Assembly (NCBI GenBank): GCA_964453405.1
Contig: CAYVOF010000002.1
Coordinates: forward strand, 10,825 to 74,824
Direction of reading: 5' to 3'
Origin: an uncultured Candidatus Saccharibacteria bacterium
GTDB taxonomy: Bacteria; Patescibacteriota; Doudnabacteria; UBA920
DNA: 64,000 nt
Shown here: positions 18,184 to 33,330 of the stretch, in pieces
Layout of the letters: every line of letters begins with the position of its first letter
Position numbering within the stretch: position 1 is the stretch's first letter
The notes under the pieces: model-generated
Told to the model about the DNA's origin: nothing
The model's input: the letters and a program-made list of their open reading frames with translations, nothing else
Databases searched by the model: none
Made by a program: the position numbers and the translations under genes

Positions 18184-19836
18184 CTAATTGCGCGGCGCAA
18201 ATGGAGGTGTGGTTACCGGAGCAGTGCTAGAGATTCCAGTTGGATCCTCATACTCGGATGAAGGCAAAGGAATTAATGGTTTGATTTGGGGAGTTTGTAA
18301 ACAAACGTTTTGTTCTTGTAACACACCAATACCACCGCTACTCGATGCTCCGCCGCTGATAGGTGTAAACACAAATTTATTAACCAAATTCTCTACAACA
18401 CCCGAAACCAATTTACTAATCGGACTACCTGTATTATTAGTACCCAAGTTCATGGCTCCAGAAATAGCTGCTTCTTGAACATTGAATATAGCTGAAACGG
18501 TTTTATTAACCTGATTAGTAATAATATCGCGACCAGTTTTTACACCTGGACTTAAAACTTCTTTTGCTGCTGCACTGTCGGCCTCAGCCTTAGTTTGTGC
18601 TGCTAGTCCTGAGTAATAGCTTTCCCACCACTGCGGGTAATTTTTTTCATCACTACCTAGACGAGCTAATTTTTGAGCCCAGTCAGGATCATTAGGATTA
18701 ATGGTAATATCATTGCCAACGTTTGTCGCCGCTTTAGCCGTGAATATTTTGTTTAAATCTTTTTTAGTTGGATTGATACAAAAATATTCGGGTAAGAATT
18801 TTTGAATAATTCCTTGATCCAGTGGGTCAGATACGAACTTCTTCATATACTCTACAGAATAAAATCTTCCCAACTCGTTAGAGTAATACAGTTGACTAGC
18901 AATAGCAAAACTTTTCTCGATATGAGCCACTAATTTGTCTAACATTTTGATAGAAAAATTGGCAAACGATTTAGCCAAACCCTCCGCCACCGCCTGCAAT
19001 ACATCGCGTTTTAAATCCGTAATCACTGTTACTGGTCCACCGAATTGTGCTTGAGCAGTCTTAATGAATGGTGGTCCTGTGGCTCTTTCTATTTCTTCTA
19101 AGACTGCAAAATTGTTAGCTGTTTTACTTAACTCAGTGTTAACCACCGCCATTCGGTTATCAATGACCGCATAACTCTGATAAAAATCTGGCCAAGGGTC
19201 ACTGTTTCGATCTTCGCTGTAAGAATTAGCATCATCAAAAATCTGGCCATACTTATCAAAAGCAACTAAATTAGCCTTATGAAATTCCATCATACTTTCT
19301 GGCACTGTTAAACTACGCAGATTGGCTAAAAACTTTTCTGTATCAGCTTTGGCTTTAGACAAATCTGCGCTACTGGCATTATCAGCAAACAAACTTACTG
19401 AGGCAGGACTAACGGCCTGTTTATAATTGGCCACCATAGAACTAACGGTACTGAGGTAATTAATTACAAAATCTGTATCTTTGCGGGTGCTGGTTTTAAC
19501 TTCGTTACTAGCAACTTGAGGAACTACTATCTTTTGCTTAGTTTGCAAAGTTTGTTCAACCTGTTGACGCACCACATCTTCACTGGCAATTTTTTGCAAC
19601 AACTGTTGACTGGCACCATAATTAGGCTCAAGCTCAGCTAAAAAAGCTTTGTATTGGGCTAGCTCAGCCGCAGCCTGCTTATCAGCAGCAGTGTAGTCGG
19701 TCTTGTCTCTAAAAGCCCATTCTCCGGGCTGCCAAACAGTGATAATAGCCAAGGCCACTATAGCCATCGTGATTACAGCATAGGTAACTTTTTTATTAAT
19801 GTCTGGAGACAAACTAGGGATAATTTTTTTTGGCAT
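18184..19836 (-). CDS. Hypothetical membrane-anchored extracytoplasmic protein (550 aa)
   Basis: N-terminal TM anchor; no recognisable motif. Confidence 0.5.
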   Translation of the reverse strand: MPKKIIPSLSPDINKKVTYAVITMAIVALAIITVWQPGEWAFRDKTDYTAADKQAAAELAQYKAFLAELEPNYGASQQLLQKIASEDVVRQQVEQTLQTKQKIVVPQVASNEVKTSTRKDTDFVINYLSTVSSMVANYKQAVSPASVSLFADNASSADLSKAKADTEKFLANLRSLTVPESMMEFHKANLVAFDKYGQIFDDANSYSEDRNSDPWPDFYQSYAVIDNRMAVVNTELSKTANNFAVLEEIERATGPPFIKTAQAQFGGPVTVITDLKRDVLQAVAEGLAKSFANFSIKMLDKLVAHIEKSFAIASQLYYSNELGRFYSVEYMKKFVSDPLDQGIIQKFLPEYFCINPTKKDLNKIFTAKAATNVGNDITINPNDPDWAQKLARLGSDEKNYPQWWESYYSGLAAQTKAEADSAAAKEVLSPGVKTGRDIITNQVNKTVSAIFNVQEAAISGAMNLGTNNTGSPISKLVSGVVENLVNKFVFTPISGGASSSGGIGVLQEQNVCLQTPQIKPLIPLPSSEYEDPTGISSTAPVTTPPFAPRN

Positions 19837-19881: not shown

Positions 19882-21441
19882 TTATTCTACTAATTCTCCA
19901 CCAAATATTTTTAGGGCGTCGGTAACGGCCGTAGCTGTATCAACAATCTGCTCGCCTACTGAATCTTTGTTAATCACTACTCTAAACTCAACATTGCCAC
20001 CAGCTTTTTGACCCAAAAAATTACTAATCAATACACGTAACTTGGCATTTTCTAGATGTTCTTTATGAAATAAATATTTAACCATGACTGTAACCTTATT
20101 ACCAAAAACTTCCTGTAATGGTGAGTTCTTGAGCAATGTTGCTATTGGACTATTTACAGTCTTGACCTCTGCGATCAATTCTGGCCACCACTGCAAAACC
20201 TGTTCTTTGGTCAGCTGTAAATCACTAGCGTTTTCAGTTTCAATTTCTTGATGAACAAAAACCGCTTGTTTTTGAGGAATAGATTGAGGAATGGTTTCTA
20301 CTTCTAATTTAGCCACTGACTGCTCTAAACTACTAGCCCTACCACCAGATTTAAGCGCACTACCATTATCCACTGAAGCTGAATCATTTGGCTTAATATA
20401 CAAAGCCGCTTCGATGCTGGCCATTAACAATGGTAACTCCGCAGTCAAAGCTTTGTCGATTTCTTTATATGCTCGCATGAATAACCTAATCACATACAAA
20501 AGTTGCGCTAAAGTGAAGGATTGGATTAAGTCAGACGCTGAATTTTTATTTCCATTACTCAACGAGGCTTCGAGATGTTCCTGTAAAATTACCAAAGTCT
20601 TACGCGCAAATGAGACTGCGTCAAAGTTGGCCTGAGTCTGAATATCAAAAAATTTACTAAGTTCATGTGTTTGACCATTAGCAATTAAATTTAACAATTC
20701 GATTACCGAGGCACGTGAGGTAGTGCCTAATAATAAGTGAATATCCCCTGCTGTTGCAGAGCTATCCAAGTGTGCAGCCAGAGACAGCTGTGATAACGCA
20801 TCACGTAAACCACCTTCACTATTTTCGACAATGACATCGATAGCTTCTTTAGGTAATTTTAATTTTTCGGTTTTTATAATTTGTTGTAAGGCGGATTTGA
20901 TATGCTCGCCAGTAATTTTACGAAAATCAAATCGTTGCGTACGAGAAATGATTGTGTCAGGAACTTTTTCAATATCAGTAGTTGCTAAAATAAATAACAC
21001 ATGAGAAGGTGGTTCTTCTAAAGTTTTAAGCAAGGCATTAAATGCTGCCTTAGACAACATATGCACTTCGTCAATCACAAAAACTTTAGTGCGACCTTGG
21101 CTTGGCTGAAAACGAATATGTTCGATTAGTTCGCGAATATTTTCTACACCTGTGTGAGATGCGGCATCAATTTCTATTACATCCAAAAATGAGCCATTGG
21201 CAATATTTACACACACGTCGCAAGTACCACATGGATTACCATCTTTAAGATTATTACAATTAGCGGCCTTAGCTAAAATTCTAGCTAAAGTAGTTTTACC
21301 AATGCCTCTACTACCAGTAAATAAATAAGCATGGCCAATTTTCCCACTCGAAACAGCCTGCCTGAGGGTTTTTACAATGGCGTCTTGTCCTAGGACTTCG
21401 CTGAAGTTTTGGGGTCGATAAGTTTGATAAAATACAGCCAT
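19882..21441 (-). CDS. dnaX: DNA polymerase III subunit gamma/tau
   Basis: YRPQNFSEVLGQ start, Walker A GSRGIGKTT, and clamp-loader zinc module CGTCDVC. Confidence 0.9.
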   Translation of the reverse strand: MAVFYQTYRPQNFSEVLGQDAIVKTLRQAVSSGKIGHAYLFTGSRGIGKTTLARILAKAANCNNLKDGNPCGTCDVCVNIANGSFLDVIEIDAASHTGVENIRELIEHIRFQPSQGRTKVFVIDEVHMLSKAAFNALLKTLEEPPSHVLFILATTDIEKVPDTIISRTQRFDFRKITGEHIKSALQQIIKTEKLKLPKEAIDVIVENSEGGLRDALSQLSLAAHLDSSATAGDIHLLLGTTSRASVIELLNLIANGQTHELSKFFDIQTQANFDAVSFARKTLVILQEHLEASLSNGNKNSASDLIQSFTLAQLLYVIRLFMRAYKEIDKALTAELPLLMASIEAALYIKPNDSASVDNGSALKSGGRASSLEQSVAKLEVETIPQSIPQKQAVFVHQEIETENASDLQLTKEQVLQWWPELIAEVKTVNSPIATLLKNSPLQEVFGNKVTVMVKYLFHKEHLENAKLRVLISNFLGQKAGGNVEFRVVINKDSVGEQIVDTATAVTDALKIFGGELVE

Positions 21442-22983: not shown

Positions 22984-23304
22984 TTAGTCTTTACGGTCGA
23001 TAATTTCTTTTGAGGCTTTAATATGAATGATTTCGTTGTTGATAGCTTCTTCAATTTGAACATTAATAGCCGGGATCTTAGCGACCAACATCGAGATTCC
23101 TTCGTCCATTTTTTCGGGATCATCTAAATCAACCAGCTCTTGAAACTCTTTTAGCTGTTCATCATTAAGATTATTAATAACCACGCCAATAACGAGCTTG
23201 TTAAAATGGTCAGTAAGCTGAGCCATAACGGCATAACGATCATCCTCTGGGAGATCATTTACGCCAATCTCAGTTAGAACTTTTTGAATTATATCTTGGA
23301 TCAT
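22984..23304 (-). CDS. Small acidic protein (106 aa), start overlapping the stop of the giant upstream gene (ATGA)
   Basis: 4-nt overlap implying translational coupling. Acidic composition as seen in chaperone or immunity proteins. Confidence 0.45.
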   Translation of the reverse strand: MIQDIIQKVLTEIGVNDLPEDDRYAVMAQLTDHFNKLVIGVVINNLNDEQLKEFQELVDLDDPEKMDEGISMLVAKIPAINVQIEEAINNEIIHIKASKEIIDRKD

Positions 23305-26300
23305 TTTTTAACTCTCCTTTTTTCTCTTCGATAAGCACCTGCATCCTTTTCAAACTGTGCATACTTATTGCGAAGTTCATTGGCAATATTGATATTTACC
23401 TCGCCACCTTTGTTAAGTGCGTCAGCGATCTCCTCTAGAGTGTCTGATTTAACATATTTTATGAATTCTTCATCATCGGTTTCTGGTATGGTTTTTTGTA
23501 ACCCTGAATCTAAAATTGACTTAGCCTGATCTACAATCCAATCGTTTTTGTGCGCTTCAAAATACTTCTTAAATTTCTTTGACTCCGAATCCGAAACCTT
23601 GGCAGGTGTCTTTTGCTTAGCTTTCTCTAACCACTCCTCTAACTCGGGTGATTCTGCATACGGGAAGATCTCTGATACAACTTTATTTGCAAATCGTTCT
23701 GCAGTTGCATCTACAGCTCTCTGCTGTTCAGATTGCTGCTGAGGATATCTTCGATCATAACGATCAATAACCTTCTGGTCAGTATCTAACCAACGATTTG
23801 GGTTTGTTTGTCGAATCCCTGCTCGAAGCTGACCATTAATGTATTTCTCATCTAGCCTGCTAAGGTCTATTGTCATTTTACCCGGCTGAGTTTTAAAACG
23901 ATCAGAAAATTCTATTTTAATATTAGTTGGGAATCCCTTGTTAAAATTATTCTCAATAAGATCCCGGACTATTCTATTAGCTTCTAAACGATGCTGTAAC
24001 GGGAACTTTGAAAATGCCTCACTATGAGAAATGTTGTTGTTCACTTCCCATAAATCTTTGGTCTCTGGGTCTACTTGTGGAATTTCTACAGGCTTTGCAC
24101 CACGAGCTTTATCCCACGGCTTAAACTTTTCCCCTAAATTTTCCATTAATTGTTTAAAATCAGCATTAGACCAACCTTTAAATGCTGTAGCTCTGTGAGT
24201 ATCATCGCCACCGTTAGCGTAATTATTATATTTTTGAATTAACCCTTTATAAAACTTAGGGTTATCGGCTTTAATATCTTCCAATTCATCAAACTTGTTG
24301 TTAAATGTTCTTTGAGAAATATCCAATTTTAGAGCAGGTACTGATTCTCCTTCTAACTTATCAAGTAATAACTTAAAATCTGAATCTGTCCAATTTTCAA
24401 ATCCGTCCCGAAATCCATCAGATCCCCCATTAGCAAAAGATTTTAGTCTGGTAACTTGATCTTCATACCACCCTGGGTTTTCCAATTTATCCACTCTTAA
24501 CCCACGAAGTTTTCTATCAAAATATTTCGGGGTTTTAACTGTTTCTTTGTTAACTTCAAGAGGAGTTTCTTCATCGAGTTTAAGTGGATCAACTTCTAAT
24601 TTTGGGGCTTCGGTAGAACCAGATTTACGATTTTCATACTCAGACAATAATTTTTTGTATGCTCGATACTGATTAGTTGGGCTTAATTTGTTAAATCGCT
24701 TTTGTTCACCCTTTTTAAACTTAAATTTATGTTCTGTTTTTAACAAATCATAAGCTTCTTTAACTTTTGATTCTAGCATCCAATCACCAATTGCATAAAA
24801 GTTTTCCCTACTGTATGGCTTATTATTTAGCGGGATACCAACATAAAACTTCTTTTTTGAATAATTCAAATCAACTTTACTACCTCGTGGGTAAAAATCT
24901 AAAGTAACTTCGTTATTGATGTCAGATTCTTTTAACGCTGTTAAAGATTGCATGAAAAGATCGGCCAATTGGTCAATTTTTGCTTTTTGTTCTTTAGTAA
25001 TTTTATTTTGTGGCCAACGAACAACTTTTACATTTTTAAAACCAGCTTTTTTAAACCGTTCATCTATAGAATTTGGTGTAATCTCATTTTTATTACCCTC
25101 CTTAGCCTCAGTCTGGGATTCAACTTCTAGTTCTGGTGGTAGTTCTGCTTCTTTTGATGGTTCTTCCATATCAGATATCGTAGCTTCACCTAATTCTTGT
25201 AATAACCTGCTAAAATCATTATCAGTCCAGTCTTTAAACGACATCTCGCGATAATTACTAGATTTACCATTAGAAAAATCACCTAATAAACGAATTAACT
25301 CTTGGTATCTTTTATTGTCGTATTCTCTGTAGTTTTTAAATGCTTTAAGTTTACTATCAAATTCTTCTTTGGATATAGGTGTTTCAGCCTTTTCGGCTAC
25401 TTTTGGATTCTCTAGTTTTTCTAGTAATCGTTTAAAATCGCTGTCAGTCCAGTTTTTAAATTTATTTTTTCTGAAAGTATTTTCTTTACCCAAAGCAAAC
25501 TTTTTTAAATAAATACCTGCGGTTTTTTTGTAACGCTCTGGCTGATCCTCCTTCATCTTACTTAACTCTTCATACTTATCATTAAACTCCTGCTCAGAAA
25601 TTCCGGATTCCTGCTTGGCTTCTTTTGCATCCTGATTGTCAAAAGGAGAACCTTCTGGTTTAGGAATCGGGGTTTCTTCTACCTTATTATTATGCGGACT
25701 CGGCGGTGCTCCAATCGGGAATTTTTCATTATTATTACGCTTTGTAGCTTTTGAAGGCCAGCCTGGGAATTTAGCATAATCTGAACCAGCCTGCTCATCA
25801 GGAACCACTTGTGCATTCTGTTTAATATACTCAAGGTGTGTGCGAGCTTCTTGACGTTTTTGTAATGCTAAGGACTCTAACAATGAGGTTGCTAATAATA
25901 CCGAATTCATAGTAGCAAAATCAGTCGCAGTCATAATCAATGGACCTGGTTGGCTGATAATTTCTTTAACGACTGCACCTGCTTGATCTGGAGTAAAGTT
26001 CATCATTGCCTGACGAGTTGCTTCGGACAAAAAGTGTGGTTTATGACCAATGAGATGATGAATATTTTCTAACCCACCCTGAGTAAGAGGACCGTTTCCC
26101 ACGCCAATTACATTTGCTTTCTCCAACGCGGTTGCTAACTGATCAGTGCTCCAAGTGATCTCATGAACATTGGCACTAATTCCATGATGGAGTGCTTCTT
26201 TTGCTAGAGTGTCTTCAGCAAAAACTAACTGCTCTACAGTTACACCACCGGCAAAATTGGGATCAATACCTCGTTGTTCAGTTATAAAGTTATGTAGAGC

Positions 26301-27623
26301 ATCACGTGCACCACCAGTTATACCACGATGGTCTAGGTGTTGCGTAAATACGTCATGAACATTAGGTTTAACTTCTGCAGCTGTCGTAACCGTAGCCGCT
26401 CCATGTCCAATAAATTCCGAGGCAATAGCACCAACTCCGGCCGCCAAACCTGAACCCAATAATCCAAACAAAGCACCTTTACCAGCAGCTCTAGCAACAG
26501 TTCCCCACTTGCCTTTAATACCTCTTAGTCTGTGTTTTGAATAATTCTTATCTAAACTCTTTTCTATATTCTTAATCATCTCCTTGGCTTCTTTGCTACG
26601 GTTAGTACCTTCGAGTCCGTTTCGTTCGCCTTGAGATAATTTTAAAATGTATTCGATTTTGTCACGTTCACCCATATTGGCAAACTTGCCATCTTTTTTA
26701 TCAAGCTCGGTCTGCATTTCGGCTCGAGCCTGATACAGACTTACTAAAATTTGTTGATATTCCTCAGGTGAGGCATCAAATTTTTGTTTAGCCCAAAGGT
26801 CTTCGAGCTTGCCAAGCATGGCAGCTTTTTCAAGATAGCTAGAATTATGAAAACGATCCATGATTTCTCGTGGATTATAAATTTTAGATTCGCGCCAAGC
26901 AGCCTTAAAACCTTCGATACCTGCACCCGCTGCAGCACCTGCACCTAATAGAACAGGAATACTAGCACCAAACGCAGCGATTGCTCCAAGTTTTACAGCA
27001 ACTCTAGCACCTGTTCCTACTACTACACCACCAAGAAATGAACCCCACTTAACATTTTTTATTGTATCTTTAGCCTGAACAAGTACGGCTGTCCTTGCTT
27101 CTTCGGAGGTATTAAGTGTGTTAAAAGTATTCCGAACATTATTTAAAAAGCTTTTTTTACCCTGGGGAGAAGTTAAAGCATTCAATACCTGGTCACCTTG
27201 TTCTTTAGATATGGTCTGATTGTCAACTAAGAACTTTATCTGTTTTTCGGGATTTTCTGTAAGTTCTTTTGCCGCGTCCTCTACGCCTTTTTCTACCTCA
27301 GCTTTGGCTTTTTCAAGTTCTTTTTGGCGCTCCGGATCTGGATTCTGCTCTTGTCTTACAACTCCCTTAATAAGCTCCTCAGTAGTTATAGGATCCGGCT
27401 CATTTTTGTCTTTACCACCTTCTTTGCTTGACTTTCGAGCCTTTTCTTTTCTTTTTCCTTCCCTAAACTGATCTCTTACTTCACGATCAGCTTCATTACG
27501 AAGATCCGCCTGTTCATTTTCGTATTCCATATCACGATTAACAGGGCCTTTATACTTGCCGGTAGTTTCCGGATTATTTTTTAATGCTGCAGCTAGGTCA
27601 AAATTTGACTCGCCTTTTCCCAT
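23301..27623 (-). CDS. Giant protein (1440 aa) with two glycine-zipper TM segments and four C-terminal ~62-aa repeats
   Basis: Charged N-terminus; Gly-rich hydrophobic segments at aa 196-236 and 382-410 (nt 26916-27038 and 26394-26480); repeats at aa 676-1165 (nt 24129-25598) containing the recurring motif FKNWTDSDFKRLLEKL. Confidence 0.6.
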   Translation of the reverse strand: MGKGESNFDLAAALKNNPETTGKYKGPVNRDMEYENEQADLRNEADREVRDQFREGKRKEKARKSSKEGGKDKNEPDPITTEELIKGVVRQEQNPDPERQKELEKAKAEVEKGVEDAAKELTENPEKQIKFLVDNQTISKEQGDQVLNALTSPQGKKSFLNNVRNTFNTLNTSEEARTAVLVQAKDTIKNVKWGSFLGGVVVGTGARVAVKLGAIAAFGASIPVLLGAGAAAGAGIEGFKAAWRESKIYNPREIMDRFHNSSYLEKAAMLGKLEDLWAKQKFDASPEEYQQILVSLYQARAEMQTELDKKDGKFANMGERDKIEYILKLSQGERNGLEGTNRSKEAKEMIKNIEKSLDKNYSKHRLRGIKGKWGTVARAAGKGALFGLLGSGLAAGVGAIASEFIGHGAATVTTAAEVKPNVHDVFTQHLDHRGITGGARDALHNFITEQRGIDPNFAGGVTVEQLVFAEDTLAKEALHHGISANVHEITWSTDQLATALEKANVIGVGNGPLTQGGLENIHHLIGHKPHFLSEATRQAMMNFTPDQAGAVVKEIISQPGPLIMTATDFATMNSVLLATSLLESLALQKRQEARTHLEYIKQNAQVVPDEQAGSDYAKFPGWPSKATKRNNNEKFPIGAPPSPHNNKVEETPIPKPEGSPFDNQDAKEAKQESGISEQEFNDKYEELSKMKEDQPERYKKTAGIYLKKFALGKENTFRKNKFKNWTDSDFKRLLEKLENPKVAEKAETPISKEEFDSKLKAFKNYREYDNKRYQELIRLLGDFSNGKSSNYREMSFKDWTDNDFSRLLQELGEATISDMEEPSKEAELPPELEVESQTEAKEGNKNEITPNSIDERFKKAGFKNVKVVRWPQNKITKEQKAKIDQLADLFMQSLTALKESDINNEVTLDFYPRGSKVDLNYSKKKFYVGIPLNNKPYSRENFYAIGDWMLESKVKEAYDLLKTEHKFKFKKGEQKRFNKLSPTNQYRAYKKLLSEYENRKSGSTEAPKLEVDPLKLDEETPLEVNKETVKTPKYFDRKLRGLRVDKLENPGWYEDQVTRLKSFANGGSDGFRDGFENWTDSDFKLLLDKLEGESVPALKLDISQRTFNNKFDELEDIKADNPKFYKGLIQKYNNYANGGDDTHRATAFKGWSNADFKQLMENLGEKFKPWDKARGAKPVEIPQVDPETKDLWEVNNNISHSEAFSKFPLQHRLEANRIVRDLIENNFNKGFPTNIKIEFSDRFKTQPGKMTIDLSRLDEKYINGQLRAGIRQTNPNRWLDTDQKVIDRYDRRYPQQQSEQQRAVDATAERFANKVVSEIFPYAESPELEEWLEKAKQKTPAKVSDSESKKFKKYFEAHKNDWIVDQAKSILDSGLQKTIPETDDEEFIKYVKSDTLEEIADALNKGGEVNINIANELRNKYAQFEKDAGAYRREKRRVKK

Positions 27624-27757
27624 GTTTTTGTTTCAAAAGTTGATAAAATTCTTATAAACATTATACCACAATTATAAAGGAAATAAAAAAAACAGGACTA
27701 AGATATACTTAGCCCCGTTGCGAAAAGAAACTCGCCAGGTTGATCCGTTAGGATCGG

Positions 27758-28561: not shown

Positions 28562-28829
28562 AGTATTTTATATGGCCCTCCTTAGGCCTTGTGAAAACAA
28601 ATTTAGGTCTTGCGGACCGTTTTTTACAACGGTCACACGTGTGCATGACCTGTAGAAAACCACATTTTTATAGTATTTATGGACTTCTAGAGGAAATTCA
28701 CAATATTCAGTTTGACCCTGTAGTATACACTATTTTTTGCTTTTTGTCAATACCTATGACAAAACCAATAAAAAAAGAGTAAAAATGAAGAATTTCTTCA
28801 CCTTTACTCTTAAAATCAATACACAATTG

Positions 28830-29279
28830 TTAAATTACTAATTTAGCCTCAGAAACGGTGGAACCTTTGGCTTTCTGTGCCTCCCAGTAGTCAATAGTAG
28901 CCTCATCATAGGCTTGTTCAAGCCATGGAGCCACAACCCAGCCTACTAGAGCTAAAGCTTGAATTAAACCTGTCCACTGCTCTAAACCAAATGGAAAGCC
29001 GAATTTACCAACAAGACAAAGCATGTTGACTATAGTTAAAATGATACCTGTCATCATCAGTGTCAACCAAAGATACCGTGTCCATTTAATAAATTCTGCC
29101 AGAGTCGGATATTTGTATGCCAACATAACCGAAATAGCCGATCCAACTGTGAGAGTGAGCAACATAAAATTCATTGGCTTTGATGTAGGCATTCGCACCA
29201 CATACATCAACCCAACAACCATCAACGCCGATACAATAAAAAACAAAATTGTATTTTCAGTATTTGTTCTTCTGTTCAT
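28830..29279 (-). CDS. Small polytopic membrane protein (about 4 TM)
   Basis: SD (AGGAGG) 6 nt upstream of the ATG; the track start is a TTG 3 nt earlier. Confidence 0.5.
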   Translation of the reverse strand: MNRRTNTENTILFFIVSALMVVGLMYVVRMPTSKPMNFMLLTLTVGSAISVMLAYKYPTLAEFIKWTRYLWLTLMMTGIILTIVNMLCLVGKFGFPFGLEQWTGLIQALALVGWVVAPWLEQAYDEATIDYWEAQKAKGSTVSEAKLVI

Positions 29280-29376
29280 CAATTTCCTCCTAAATTATTT
29301 GAACCTAAAAAAATTTCAATTAAACGTTAAAAACTTCTTGGAAAAGAATATCACAGAAAACTGGTTTTGGCAAGAC

Positions 29377-31935
29377 CTAAACTGTCTTCTCTACTGCGCC
29401 TGGTCCAGCAGCCATCATATCAGCAACTTGGCTAGCTTCTAGGATTTCTGACTCAACTTCACTGCGTGGACGGCCAAATTTTAACCGCGACAGTTGACGA
29501 ATAGCCTCGGCAGTTTTCTTTTGCTCTTCATTAGCTTTTGGTAGCGGATAAGTTGCCATATTAAACGGTTTACTAGCCGTTCCCTTAATCATCAATTTTA
29601 CAAACGCGTTAAAGCGATCAACGTTTAATAAATCGAACTCGTTAAATGTTGGGGCAAATTCTTTAGCCATAACTTCACTGTCTTCTACACCGATACGGAA
29701 CGTGACCATACTACCAGCATTTCCAAACACCGCATCGCGAAGATCGTTACTTGCCGCACCTTGTGCACCCGCAGCTTGACCAAGCTGCGCCAAGAACTGG
29801 TGACCAATAATTAAGTTTAATCGATACTTACGGGCTTCACTTAAAATAGATGAGAAAGCATCAGTAATAAAGTTCTGGAACTCATCTACATATAGATAAA
29901 AATCTTGACGTTGATCTTCGGGAATATCAGCGCGCGACAACGCTGCCATCTGAATCTTACTAACCAAAATCAAACCAATCAGTTTGGCGTTCATTTCCCC
30001 TACTTTTCCTTTGGCCAAGTTCACTAAGAGGATTTTTTTATTATCCATGATGTCTCTAAAATTGAAGGCGCTCTTTGGCTGACCAACAATATTACGCATC
30101 ATGGAGTTTTCTACGAAGCGACCAACTTTGGAAACCAAATAACCCAACATTTCGGACTTATGAAAGTCGCTAGTTTTAGCCATTTCTTTTTCCCAAAAAG
30201 CACGAACCACTGGATCATTTAATTTAGAAACTTTGTACTTTTGGAATTCGGTGTCAGTAAAAATGCGCGGTACCTCGACAATTGTGCCTGGGTTTTGTTC
30301 ATCCGCCATCAACGTAAGCATGGCGTTGCGCATATTATGTTCGAACATTGGTCCAAGCATGGCAGGGTCGGTAACCAATTTATAAAAGATCGAGATCATT
30401 TCTTGTACAGCAAAATCTTTTTGACCTTCACTAGTCACTTCGAGCATGTTCAAACCCATTGGCCGGTCTGTATCGAATGGATCAAACAAAATTACATCTT
30501 CGGCACGCTCTTTTGGAATATGAGGTAAAACGTCTTCAATAAAATCACCGTGTGGGTCAATAATACAAATTCCGTCACCATTCTTAATATCCTGCACAGA
30601 CATGTACTTCATGATTTCGGTTTTACCCACACCAGTACGCCCTAGAATATACATATGACGACGACGATCATCGCGCGACATATGAATCTTAGTTTCTTGG
30701 CCACGATAAATATTACGACCTAATAAGATTCCTTCTTCTGGCAAATTAATTGGAGGTGGAGCTTTTTTAGATAGCAACCATTTGATGTTTGGTGTTTCTA
30801 AAAATGGTGTTGGGAGATGCCAAATGCTAGTTAATTCTTCGGTGTTTAAAATGGCTTTACGGCCATAACGACGATAGATGCGAAAAATATAATCTTTAAT
30901 AATACGTTTTTTGGCACGGCGCTTTACGCGAAAACCATTAAACGGCGCCATGTTGTACTGCAAAAATGAAGCTACTAAGTTATGCATATTAACTTTGGCT
31001 TCTCCAGGAGTTGGAGACGCAGTAATTAACCGAATGTTAGTAAAAAATCCTGGACGACTGGCTTTTTCTTCAAAGCGCTTTACCATTTCTTGCTGCATTG
31101 GGGTTAAGTTAATCGCCGAATATCGTCCCGATAAATCAGTGCGTTGCTGCATTTGATCTTTACTTAACTCACCACTTCCTAATGCACTGGTTTTTGCAGT
31201 ACTGGCAACTTCACGCGCAAAACGACCAAACGCACTCTTGGCAACAATGTTTGGATTTTTCCCTTGCTGAATTTCCAACGCCATATGACGTGGTCGGTGC
31301 TGCCAATGCTCGCCTGCGGGATATAAAATCATTTGAATCACGGCGCCGTCTTCATCGCCAAGTTTTGACATTGCATTAGTAAGGGAGTTAAGTGGATCAG
31401 TTTCCATGCTCTTATAAGTTCGGAAAGGATACATATAAGGTTTCGTAAGACGAAGCTCAGTTGCCTCAATCTGACCTTTGGCCGGAAAAGGATTATAGCC
31501 TTTAATCTCTTCGATAAAGGCATGAGGATACTGCGCCTGAACCTGCTTTTCAATTAACTCTTGTAGCTTGCGCGGGCAATTAATATAAAACGAAATCTTT
31601 TTATCAATACAGGCAATTTCGAAACTAATATATTCTTTAGGTTGAAAAAACCAGTTGTCATGACTTATACCCGAGAGCGTAGTAAATAACTGTTCCGCAA
31701 TACCAATTAGTAGTTTTTTCTCTTCATCTCGTTGATACTTTTCTTTATCTTCGCTATTATCTTTTGGCATTTGAATTTCTAAGAACACCCAATCTTTAGT
31801 GCGCGGCAAAATTACGCGGCCATAATACCAATGCCGGTGCAAATAATAAACCAGGAAAACCAAAAACACTATTACTAAAATTCCTAGCAATAGTGATGCA
31901 ATAATAATTGTATTAAGTTCTAATCCGAACGGCAT
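29377..31935 (-). CDS. Membrane-anchored FtsK/HerA-superfamily ATPase of type IV secretion type (VirB4/VirD4/TraD-like) with an atypical ~400-aa N-terminal domain
   Basis: N-terminal TM; Walker A GRTGVGKT (aa 432-439) followed by IIDPHGD; Walker B LYVDEFQNF (aa 680-688); 852 aa. Confidence 0.6.
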   Translation of the reverse strand: MPFGLELNTIIIASLLLGILVIVFLVFLVYYLHRHWYYGRVILPRTKDWVFLEIQMPKDNSEDKEKYQRDEEKKLLIGIAEQLFTTLSGISHDNWFFQPKEYISFEIACIDKKISFYINCPRKLQELIEKQVQAQYPHAFIEEIKGYNPFPAKGQIEATELRLTKPYMYPFRTYKSMETDPLNSLTNAMSKLGDEDGAVIQMILYPAGEHWQHRPRHMALEIQQGKNPNIVAKSAFGRFAREVASTAKTSALGSGELSKDQMQQRTDLSGRYSAINLTPMQQEMVKRFEEKASRPGFFTNIRLITASPTPGEAKVNMHNLVASFLQYNMAPFNGFRVKRRAKKRIIKDYIFRIYRRYGRKAILNTEELTSIWHLPTPFLETPNIKWLLSKKAPPPINLPEEGILLGRNIYRGQETKIHMSRDDRRRHMYILGRTGVGKTEIMKYMSVQDIKNGDGICIIDPHGDFIEDVLPHIPKERAEDVILFDPFDTDRPMGLNMLEVTSEGQKDFAVQEMISIFYKLVTDPAMLGPMFEHNMRNAMLTLMADEQNPGTIVEVPRIFTDTEFQKYKVSKLNDPVVRAFWEKEMAKTSDFHKSEMLGYLVSKVGRFVENSMMRNIVGQPKSAFNFRDIMDNKKILLVNLAKGKVGEMNAKLIGLILVSKIQMAALSRADIPEDQRQDFYLYVDEFQNFITDAFSSILSEARKYRLNLIIGHQFLAQLGQAAGAQGAASNDLRDAVFGNAGSMVTFRIGVEDSEVMAKEFAPTFNEFDLLNVDRFNAFVKLMIKGTASKPFNMATYPLPKANEEQKKTAEAIRQLSRLKFGRPRSEVESEILEASQVADMMAAGPGAVEKTV

Positions 31936-31979: not shown

Positions 31980-32333
31980 TTAATTTTGCAGATCGCCCAT
32001 TATTTTATTTACTAATTCCCTAGCCGAGCTACTATCATCAGTTTTAATATCATTTTCATCGTAGAGCTCCGTTTTAATATCTTCCACACGTTTTTCACCC
32101 GAAGCTATCGCTTCTATAATAGGAGGTTCTAAAGCTGATTCTATAGATAATTTAGAAGCATCCACTTGAGCAGGCGCCTCGGACTGCTCTATAGGGACTT
32201 CTTGTTCAACTGACTTAACTTGAGCTGGAATAGTTTCGGAAATTGAAGACTCAGCAACTTCTTGCATGCCAAGATTTTCTGTTGCTTTTTCCGGTTCAAA
32301 ACCTTCTGGAGTTTTTCGTATTGGGTCTGCCAT
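31980..32333 (-). CDS. Small acidic low-complexity protein (117 aa)
   Basis: ORF preceded by a TGGTATAAT -10 element ending 9 nt before the ATG, so likely a leaderless mRNA. Confidence 0.4.
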   Translation of the reverse strand: MADPIRKTPEGFEPEKATENLGMQEVAESSISETIPAQVKSVEQEVPIEQSEAPAQVDASKLSIESALEPPIIEAIASGEKRVEDIKTELYDENDIKTDDSSSARELVNKIMGDLQN

Positions 32334-32375
32334 AATGTATAAATTATACCATAAAACGACTTAAAAATACAAATA

Positions 32376-32410
32376 AAAAAGCGCTATTTTTTAATACAAT
32401 AGCGCTTTAA
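32376..32410 (-). terminator. Rho-independent terminator downstream of the SDR gene
   Basis: Hairpin aaagcgctatt ... aatagcgcttt followed by a T-run on the minus strand. Confidence 0.65.
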
Positions 32411-32417
32411 AACTGTT

Positions 32418-33128
32418 CTAAAACTGATAATCTCTTGGGATAGACATTTCTTTAAAATATTCCGTTTGACTAACCACAGAGTCTACAATAACCCGAGCAA
32501 CCTTAGATGGATCTAAAAACCCATCAAAATTATCTTGCGGATTATTATCCCAAAATGGAGTTTGCATACCACCTGGCATAAATAAGCTGACTTTGATGTT
32601 GGATTTAAGTCGTTCGGATTCTAAGCCTAAACTCCGAGTGAACCCAACCTGAGCATGCTTAGTTGCAACATAAATCGCCTCATCGTCTCTGGCTTTCATT
32701 CCTGAAGAAGATGAAATCACAACAAACTGACAATCTCTATTAGACTTGAGCATCTCTCTCCAAACTGCATGAGCAATCAAAACAGAGTTACGAAAATTTA
32801 TATCCACCAAATGACGAATGGAAAAAAAATCTTGATCTGCAAAATCTCCCTTTAATAATGAGCCGGCAACCCAAAAAAATCTATCGATTGTCGGTATTGT
32901 TGGAAATTCCAGAATATTCTGACCCAAACGATCACAAATAACATGGATAGAGTGATCATTGCTTAGATCGCACGGTAAAAGCAATTTATCGTCATTAAAA
33001 AATTCAGTCTTGATTGAACTACCTCCTACTACAATATAATCACCGTTAGCTTGGCATTGGTTAACAATACTTGCCCCGAGACCCTTAGTCCCACCCAAAA
33101 CAAACGAAACCAGTCTATTATTCTTCAT
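32418..33128 (-). CDS. Short-chain dehydrogenase/reductase (SDR) family oxidoreductase
   Basis: GGTKGLG Rossmann motif and YVATK (YxxxK) catalytic motif. Confidence 0.7.
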   Translation of the reverse strand: MKNNRLVSFVLGGTKGLGASIVNQCQANGDYIVVGGSSIKTEFFNDDKLLLPCDLSNDHSIHVICDRLGQNILEFPTIPTIDRFFWVAGSLLKGDFADQDFFSIRHLVDINFRNSVLIAHAVWREMLKSNRDCQFVVISSSSGMKARDDEAIYVATKHAQVGFTRSLGLESERLKSNIKVSLFMPGGMQTPFWDNNPQDNFDGFLDPSKVARVIVDSVVSQTEYFKEMSIPRDYQF

Positions 33129-33187
33129 ATTAACTCCTTTTTGCTTTATTTTCTGATAATAAATTCTATCTCATTTGCAGATATTAG

Positions 33188-33300
33188 TAAAGTCCAGAGA
33201 TTTTGTTATAAAGCGAAATCATCAGCGCACAGCCGTAGCTCGCAAAGCGAGCGTAACGGCGTAGCGGTGCAGATTGAGCGATAACAAATCTCTGGACTTA
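33188..33300. repeat. GC-rich palindromic intergenic element, copy A
   Basis: About 20-bp AT-rich inverted arms (taaagtccagagattttgttat / ataacaaatctctggactta) flanking a GC-rich core containing gctcgcaaagcgagcg. Confidence 0.6.
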
Positions 33301-33330
33301 ATAAAAAATCCTACAAAAGTAGGATTTAAT

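Follow-up and report, generated by a model that had tools for sequence, protein, structure and literature searches.

We analysed a 64,000-nucleotide stretch of contig CAYVOF010000002.1 (assembly GCA_964453405.1, positions 10,825 to 74,824 of the forward strand) from an uncultured Candidatus Saccharibacteria bacterium of the lineage Doudnabacteria, and refer to this whole stretch as the window. On its minus strand, at 29377..31935, the list of open reading frames (ORFs) and the translation gave an ORF of 852 amino acids (aa) with an ATG start, which would encode a P-loop ATPase of the kind found in type IV secretion systems (T4SSs). Homologues were found in 1,819 database proteins at E<=1e-3, and the top 120 are full length (about 850 aa) and 70-93% identical. 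Because of these homologues we regard the ORF as a real and intact gene and not as a chance ORF. The features of the protein and of its surroundings are listed in Table 1.

Table 1. Features of the ATPase gene and its neighbours in the window
Feature	Position	Strand	Basis or remark
ATPase coding sequence, complete, 852 aa	29377..31935	-	Stop codon 29377-29379; ORF list, full-length homologues
Predicted transmembrane helix, aa 8-32 (NTIIIASLLLGILVIVFLVFLVYYL), then basic stretch, aa 33-47	31840..31914	-	Hydropathy, AlphaFold2 (AF2)
DUF8128 (PF26449) alpha/beta domain, aa 48-372	30820..31794	-	Pfam annotation of homologues, phmmer, AF2, Foldseek
Linker motif ILNTEEL..W/F-HLP..TPNIKWL..APPP, aa 362-396	30748..30852	-	Alignments A1 and A2; hhalign
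Nucleotide-binding domain of coupling-protein type, aa 403-800	29536..30729	-	Pfam, PDB sequence matches, Foldseek, hhalign
Walker A, GRTGVGKT, aa 432-439	30619..30642	-	Regular expression on translation
All-alpha insertion, like the all-alpha domain (AAD), eight predicted helices, aa 503-631	30043..30429	-	DSSP on AF2 model, Foldseek
Walker B, FYLYVDEF (hhhhDE type), aa 679-686	29878..29901	-	Regular expression
C-terminal tail, two predicted helices then disordered end, aa 803-852	29380..29529	-	AF2
Upstream ORF, 117 aa, acidic, low complexity	31980..32333	-	44 nt from ATPase start
Downstream ORF, 150 aa, hydrophobic, followed by terminator-like hairpin	28830..29282	-	Translation
Terminator-like hairpin, 17-bp stem and T-run	28775..28811	-	Consensus scan, pattern match only
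Terminator-like hairpin, 12-bp stem and T-run	27691..27719	-	Consensus scan; exactly in intergenic gap
Conserved Patescibacteria protein, 213 aa	22242..22883	-	No Pfam match
dnaX, clamp-loader gamma/tau	19882..21441	-	Pfam

Membrane anchor, DUF8128 and P-loop motor

The ATPase contains only one hydrophobic segment, at aa 8-32 (Kyte-Doolittle, 19-residue windows >1.6), and the AF2 model has an N-terminal helix at aa 9-47. The residues just C-terminal of the predicted transmembrane (TM) helix are basic (HRHWYYGRVILPRTK), and therefore the remaining ~820 residues would be cytoplasmic, on the same side as the ATPase activity. This predicts an N-out/C-in topology in which one helix serves as membrane tether. 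The full-length model has a mean predicted local distance difference test score (pLDDT) of 84 and a predicted template modelling score (pTM) of 0.73, with pLDDT <50 at aa 837-852. In alignments A1 and A2, which have invariant and near-invariant columns along the linker motif, its H373 and P375 are invariant across the family; G432, G437 and K438 of Walker A as well as D684 and E685 of Walker B are invariant in alignment A1. The first-pass annotation of this DNA, made from the letters alone, had placed Walker A at aa 432 and Walker B at about aa 680 of 852 behind a single N-terminal TM segment, in agreement with our motif search, hydropathy profile and model; it had named no strand.

The motor half resembles the type IV coupling proteins (T4CPs). 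Residues 416-746 match T4CP/HerA-type P-loop models of Pfam and NCBIfam: TrwB_AAD_bind scored 42.4 bits (cut-off 20.5), T4SS-DNA_transf 26.9 bits (cut-off 20.1) and DUF87, the central domain of HerA, 34.6 bits against a cut-off of 23.2, the last over aa 424-479 only. When 53 diverse family members were searched, TrwB_AAD_bind matched 51, DUF87 48, TraG-D_C 47 and T4SS-DNA_transf 35 of them; the VirB4-type AAA_10 and FtsK_SpoIIIE (E 7.8e-4) matched one each. Searching PDB sequences with a hidden Markov model (HMM) of the family ranked TrwB and DotL first and returned no VirB4 at E<=1. Furthermore, in hhalign comparisons at equal alignment depth with three reference sequences each, the family aligned to PcfC, TrwB and TraD with a probability of 97.4 (E 1.2e-11, score 101), compared to 93.4 (E 2.5e-7, score 69) for the VirB4 proteins PrgJ, TrwK and TraC. 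Foldseek superposed essentially the whole of TrwB-deltaN70 on the model (target TM-score, TMt, 0.62-0.66; root-mean-square deviation ~5 A; 412-462 columns for a target of 411-427 residues), and HerA structures stood below TrwB in the ranking of the full-length model.

VirB4 sequence models, on the other hand, gave little. No Pfam match to CagE_TrbE_VirB or AAA_10 was obtained for the ATPase at E<=1, the only NCBIfam match to VirB4_plasma had an E value of 1.4e-3 over 39 residues, and a VirB4 HMM of our own scored family members at E 3e-4 to 0.02. Sequence profiles and models together indicate that the motor with its all-alpha insertion is nearer to the coupling proteins TrwB, TraD and PcfC than to VirB4. 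The motor is also recognisably related to VirB4, as expected of sister families.

For aa 1-400 no Pfam or NCBIfam match was found at E<=1; the Pfam scan was blank because PF26449 is newer than the release that was scanned. In the precomputed annotation, PF26449, which is DUF8128, is assigned to all of the 120 best homologues. A phmmer search with aa 33-415 alone against 1.84 billion representatives of 50%-identity clusters retrieved 2,200 clusters at E<=1e-3, including 1,019 at E<=1e-10. Modelled separately (aa 40-400; pLDDT 85, pTM 0.82), this region is predicted to form an alpha/beta domain of two lobes; an insertion at about aa 225-278 is of low confidence, and outside it pLDDT is about 90. 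The top 14 PDB matches of this model in Foldseek were all TrwK/VirB4 chains of R388 (E 7.7e-7 to 8.4e-4, probability 1.00, query TM-score, TMq, 0.42-0.45), followed by unrelated ferredoxin-like and FAD-oxidase folds at E >= 7e-3. Moreover, the top PDB match of the full-length model was full-length TrwK/VirB4 (E 2e-14, ~940 columns), with both halves collinear, and the hhalign alignment between the family and VirB4 extends ~140 residues N-terminal of Walker A, across the LNTEEL..HLP linker. As judged from these models, DUF8128 probably has a fold like that of the VirB4 N-terminal domain.

Sequence homology of DUF8128 to solved proteins was also sought, and an HMM of the N-domain run against PDB sequences returned only spurious matches to designed repeat proteins. 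As a source of a diverse VirB4 set, tblastn against plasmids was rejected: it saturated at close F-type TraC relatives, and PrgJ-family matches were used instead, giving a VirB4 N-terminal-domain profile composed of the PrgJ family, TrwK and TraC.

The first-pass annotation had also noted a region of about 400 aa, which it could not name, ahead of the nucleotide-binding domain (NBD). Such a region does lie between the TM helix and the NBD, but it had already been named, as DUF8128. The VirB4-like layout that was suspected from the motif spacing is borne out by the collinear full-length match and by the N-domain, which alone matches TrwK/VirB4 only. Likeness to coupling proteins had been argued from the membrane anchor and the DEF-type Walker B. 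It holds for the motor by Pfam, hhalign and Foldseek, but the DEF Walker B is not diagnostic and there is one TM helix, not two. The hhhhDE Walker B is also present in VirB4s.

Family breadth and conserved neighbourhood

Among the best 150 cluster representatives, the domain begins ~30-100 residues from the N-terminus, a single N-terminal hydrophobic segment is present in nearly all, and Walker A lies at aa ~400-470 in every sequence that is long enough; the shorter entries look like contig-end fragments. This uniform order of TM helix, DUF8128 and P-loop motor argues for a fixed architecture and not for a one-off fusion. Judged from these sequences, the family spans the Patescibacteria, with ~2,200 clusters at 50% identity, and the layout is the norm within the phylum.

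To describe gene neighbourhoods, we used the best 80 loci among the matches listed (at least 600) in species-representative genomes, which are 39-70% identical, with flanks of up to 10 kb per side. Their titles include Magasanik-, Uhr-, Falkow-, Komeili-, Berkel-, Staskawicz-, Curtiss-, Levy-, Davies-, Woese- and Moranbacteria, in addition to Paceibacterota, Saccharibacteria, Peregrini-/Peribacteria and Gracilibacteria. The gene was also seen on contigs titled Methylomirabilota, Gammaproteobacteria, Bdellovibrionales, Bathyarchaeia and Nitrospirota (L015, L020, L023, L067, L090, L091 and others), which are probably mislabelled or contaminated bins of metagenome-assembled genomes and not true occurrences. 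A second full-length family member stands in tandem a few kb downstream at three loci (L034, 15606-18542; L042, 13960-17190; L043, 3533-6160). Such pairs fit the figure of roughly two T4CP homologues for each genome in a published census (PMC12102498, Table S3).

Close relatives keep the order secY, ~120-aa ORF, ATPase, then, further on, GtrA and dnaX. Across the wider set, a homologue of the 213-aa protein of Table 1 was found in 25 of the 80 loci, always downstream and on the same strand, at a distance of <=800 nt in 23 of the 25. The dnaX gene follows downstream on the same strand in 26 of the 80, and likewise in L011 and L014. Directly upstream of the ATPase, 25 loci carry a member of a small-protein family of ~150-190 aa with an acidic, low-complexity N-terminal half and the C-terminal motif WLKxIPGVNKFFLEQEAKIKT, often overlapping the ATPase start (L009, 3570-4031; L011, 3-467). 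Together these genes form a same-strand cassette of small protein, ATPase, 213-aa protein and dnaX in about 25 of the 80 loci, with gaps of 0-800 nt; it is also present in L003, L008, L011 and L014. The cassette occurs mainly in closer relatives (Magasanik-, Uhr-, Komeili-, Berkelbacteria and similar), that is, in the Parcubacteria-type half of the family, and was not seen in the Microgenomates-, Peregrinibacteria- and most of the Saccharibacteria-titled loci.

The 213-aa protein is very widespread in Patescibacteria. It carries an invariant motif, VPANYxxKSxLVxGDxLK. In a database search with the protein, each of the 8,000 candidates that were scored was a match at E<=1e-3. It has no Pfam match even at E<=10 and no sequence relative in the PDB. 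The motif and two JGI names hint at an AbrB-like identity, for which we found no support and which we do not claim. The protein is a good target in its own right.

The window lies in core chromosome of a Patescibacteria-type genome of ~40% GC, with a glycolysis/pentose-phosphate block, ruvX and htrA-like genes, and EF-G and parB further on. The local order is dnaX, GtrA, the ATPase locus, a short-chain dehydrogenase/reductase (SDR) gene, secY and then a series of small ORFs. By size, these ORFs would suit a ribosomal-protein operon, and their equivalents in two relatives are annotated as ribosomal proteins. From this gene content, the ATPase gene appears to sit just downstream of the ribosomal-protein/secY block. 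The adk-map-infA-rpmJ continuation that is usual in bacteria is not there after secY; the series instead runs secY, hairpin, SDR gene, small acidic ORF, ATPase (33131..33330 and 31980..33128, minus strand).

The 117-aa ORF upstream is probably co-transcribed with the ATPase, and a small ORF occupies the same position in relatives. We asked whether it belongs with the small proteins that are encoded upstream in 25 loci, but it has no HMM match and the likeness is compositional only. The product of the 150-aa ORF downstream reads like a multi-pass membrane protein, and the ORF is not conserved in relatives. By pattern match, one terminator-like hairpin stands exactly behind secY, another behind the 150-aa ORF and a third behind the ORF that comes next. 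This arrangement suggests one transcription unit of the SDR gene, the 117-aa ORF, the ATPase and the 150-aa ORF, of which the hairpin at 28775..28811 would be the probable end. A sigma-70-like promoter match (11/12) was seen at 28750-28722, between the two hairpins of Table 1 and ahead of a 267-aa ORF.

Four poorly conserved genes (150, 267, 1440 and 106 aa) lie between the ATPase and the 213-aa gene in the window. The 267-aa gene was considered as a conserved partner and rejected, since the gene of equal length that lies downstream in L003 shows no similarity to it; the neighbour shared with that locus is the 213-aa gene. The 1,440-aa protein (23301..27623, minus strand) has no Pfam match. 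A motif of the type F(K/E)(N/D/G)W(T/S)(D/N)xDF(K/S)xL(L/M)(E/Q/D)xL occurs in it at least four times, and hydrophobic stretches rich in Gly and Ala lie near aa 200-250 and aa 390-410. The protein shares only 39% identity with its 1,130-aa counterpart in L001, an 89%-identical relative, and therefore seems to be evolving fast. Between the htrA-like gene and dnaX, a 550-aa ORF (18184..19836, minus strand) has no Pfam match at E<=1e-5. Among the neighbouring window genes scanned, no relaxase, integrase, VirB4 or other T4SS domain was found.

Relation to known ATPases and possible role

Within the HerA-FtsK superfamily, the protein is best placed in the VirB4/VirD4 branch, in a family of membrane-anchored P-loop ATPases that is chromosomally fixed across Patescibacteria. 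Like the coupling proteins TrwB of R388, TraD of F, PcfC of pCF10 and DotL, it combines a RecA-like NBD with Walker A and B and an intervening all-alpha domain with an N-terminal membrane anchor and a C-terminal tail, and over aa ~400-800 nothing matches it better than the T4CPs, by sequence profile or by structure. Unlike them, it has a folded cytoplasmic domain of ~330 residues, DUF8128, between anchor and motor, and one TM helix where canonical VirD4-type proteins have two. It also differs in being encoded without a linked relaxase or T4SS gene among the window genes scanned, or VirB4 in the 80 loci, and in being a chromosomal, core, phylum-wide gene and not one of a mobile element. With ~370 residues, including a folded domain, between TM helix and NBD, the protein departs from the VirD4 type, in which the transmembrane domain (TMD) is next to the NBD. 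None of the five published T4CP architecture classes has a large folded domain between TMD and NBD (PMC7431656).

With the VirB4 proteins TrwK of R388, TraC of F and PrgJ of pCF10 the ATPase shares an alpha/beta domain of ~400 aa ahead of the motor, a predicted N-domain fold that matches TrwK, collinearity of the full-length model and an alignable linker N-terminal of the motor. It differs from VirB4 in lacking a match to VirB4 sequence models and detectable sequence similarity in the N-domain, in a motor nearer to T4CPs with a larger all-alpha insertion, in its own TM helix and in not being encoded beside virB3/6/8 homologues. By description only, it is like the VirB3-VirB4 fusions, in which one or more N-terminal membrane helices, a VirB4-type N-domain and a motor form one polypeptide; such fusions exist in other systems, and none was found in the Patescibacteria census (PMC12102498). 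FtsK/SpoIIIE and the archaeal CedB/HerA-like DNA translocases are ring ATPases of this superfamily that are likewise anchored in the membrane, and the gene stands in a chromosomal housekeeping context. The ATPase gave no match to the FtsK_SpoIIIE Pfam profile, no HAS-barrel-type fold was among the Foldseek results for the N-domain, and no FtsK gamma domain was found. NCBIfam matches to CedB, CedD and HerA are weak and confined to ~60 residues around Walker A.

The 2025 census counted 5,713 VirD4-like T4CP homologues in 2,918 of 3,035 Patescibacteria genomes, of which only 148 are near virB4, giving about two "orphan" T4CP homologues per genome (several t4cp1/t4cp2 matches per genome in Table S3); most genomes have a bona fide VirB4 in a separate cluster (PMC12102498). 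The core-genome location of the gene and the absence of adjacent T4SS genes agree with that picture, and the DUF8128 family almost certainly contributes to this T4CP count. No mention of DUF8128 or PF26449 was found in the literature searched.

We consider it reasonably probable, by analogy with these systems, that this membrane ATPase serves in coupling or translocation, most likely together with a distally encoded Patescibacteria T4SS. The T4SS link specifically is held more tentatively, at somewhat less than an even chance. By analogy with TrwB, VirD4 and VirB4, the TM helix would tether a ring, probably a hexamer, to the cytoplasmic face of the membrane. ATP hydrolysis would drive the engagement of DNA, a nucleoprotein or an unfolded protein, which would be pushed toward a membrane channel, and the all-alpha domain and C-terminal tail may serve as receptor for substrate or adaptor. 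VirB4 N-terminal domains mediate dimerisation and membrane embedding and contact VirB3 and VirB8 (PMC12857230), and DUF8128 may on that account play the corresponding part, in dimerisation and docking onto small membrane partners. The channel partner would most likely be the Patescibacteria T4SS encoded elsewhere in the genome.

Several observations weigh against this reading. The synteny with dnaX points away from secretion. A separate VirB4 gene was not detected by the VirB4 HMM in any of the 80 loci, with an HMM whose sensitivity for Patescibacteria VirB4 was not verified. In profile-profile comparison, DUF8128 scored 17.7 against the VirB4 N-terminal domain and reversed controls scored 16.6-17.3, which amounts to no signal; the likeness to that domain is one between predicted models and a single solved protein, TrwK, at a TM-score of 0.44. 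In S. epibionticum, the one Saccharibacterium that is genetically tractable, the annotated t4cp homologue, which may or may not be a DUF8128 protein, is reported to be non-essential by transposon sequencing and the T4SS genes to be essential (PMC12102498).

A T4SS-independent DNA translocase for replication, segregation or DNA uptake, comparable to FtsK/SpoIIIE or CedB and acting with the 213-aa protein, is a serious alternative, since the gene is operonic with dnaX in many lineages, even if we judge it unlikely. The cassette in about 25 of the 80 species-level loci and in the four further loci named above, the housekeeping context in which the gene always stands, its place in the HerA-FtsK superfamily and the weak CedB/CedD matches all fit such a role, and the census authors write that exaptation of Patescibacteria T4CPs "cannot be ruled out" (PMC12102498). 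The single FtsK_SpoIIIE match in 53 members does not fit it, nor does the 213-aa protein, which is without a recognisable DNA-binding domain; a separate ftsK is annotated in one Saccharibacterium at least (PMC10768705). In addition, the linkage to dnaX and the 213-aa gene is absent in the more distant half of the family, among others at loci titled Levy-, Woese-, Curtiss- and Peregrini-/Peribacteria and at most of the Saccharibacteria loci, and therefore the cassette may simply be inherited gene order. The collinear TrwK/VirB4 match of the full-length model, the N-domain that matches TrwK only, the mid-protein Walker A and the existence of VirB3-VirB4 fusions would also suit a highly divergent, fusion-like VirB4 paralogue that assembles or energises a T4SS and is not a coupling protein. 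We find this doubtful, since VirB4-type Pfam and NCBIfam models give nothing above noise and our own VirB4 HMM only marginal E values, the motor profile is nearer to T4CPs with an eight-helix insertion like that of TrwB, most genomes already hold a bona fide VirB4, and virB3/6/8-like neighbours were not seen. Names that databases give to such proteins, for example 'type IV secretory system conjugative DNA transfer family protein', together with the T4SS-DNA_transf and TraG-D_C matches, would point to a coupling protein that belongs to an integrated conjugative element or to the remains of a decaying one. Such an origin is highly improbable and was rejected: the gene is intact, is 70-93% identical among many relatives and sits between secY and dnaX in conserved synteny, and the part of its neighbourhood in the window that was examined contains no gene for a relaxase, integrase or VirB4. 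Relaxases are rare in the phylum (109 in 3,035 genomes; PMC12102498), and the GC content of the window, an overall figure, is 39.8%.

The first-pass annotation had read the layout as a hybrid and as a possible distinct subfamily, and sequence and models support this reading: the structure prediction it had proposed for the N-terminal region, run on aa 40-400, gave an alpha/beta domain whose predicted fold is probably TrwK/VirB4-like by Foldseek, and the family is large and architecturally fixed. However, it is already catalogued, and 'atypical' applies only relative to textbook T4SS ATPases. What is known is thus an uncharacterised Pfam family, DUF8128. Three features seem not to have been described before: the joining of a VirB4-like N-domain to a VirD4-like motor, the anchor of a single helix and the conserved cassette with the 213-aa protein and dnaX. 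More speculatively, and in our estimate quite unlikely, DUF8128 ATPases could be a third, deep-branching lineage of the VirB4/VirD4 group, with a VirB4-type N-domain on a VirD4-type motor, as a living intermediate of the ancient VirB4/T4CP split, which took on a T4SS-independent core-genome task: together with the 213-aa protein and the replication machinery, they would move DNA along the membrane or across it. If this holds, the task could be to acquire nucleic acids from hosts or to partition the chromosome in ultra-small cells.

At least one orphan T4CP family is now seen to have a fixed and distinctive build: a TM helix, a probably VirB4-like DUF8128 and a VirD4-like motor. This provides candidate partner genes, domain boundaries and catalytic residues as handles for experiments, and it bears on the divergence between VirB4 and the coupling proteins. 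Much of the diversity of uncultured bacteria belongs to the Patescibacteria, epibionts that have to import building blocks, and possibly macromolecules, from their hosts.

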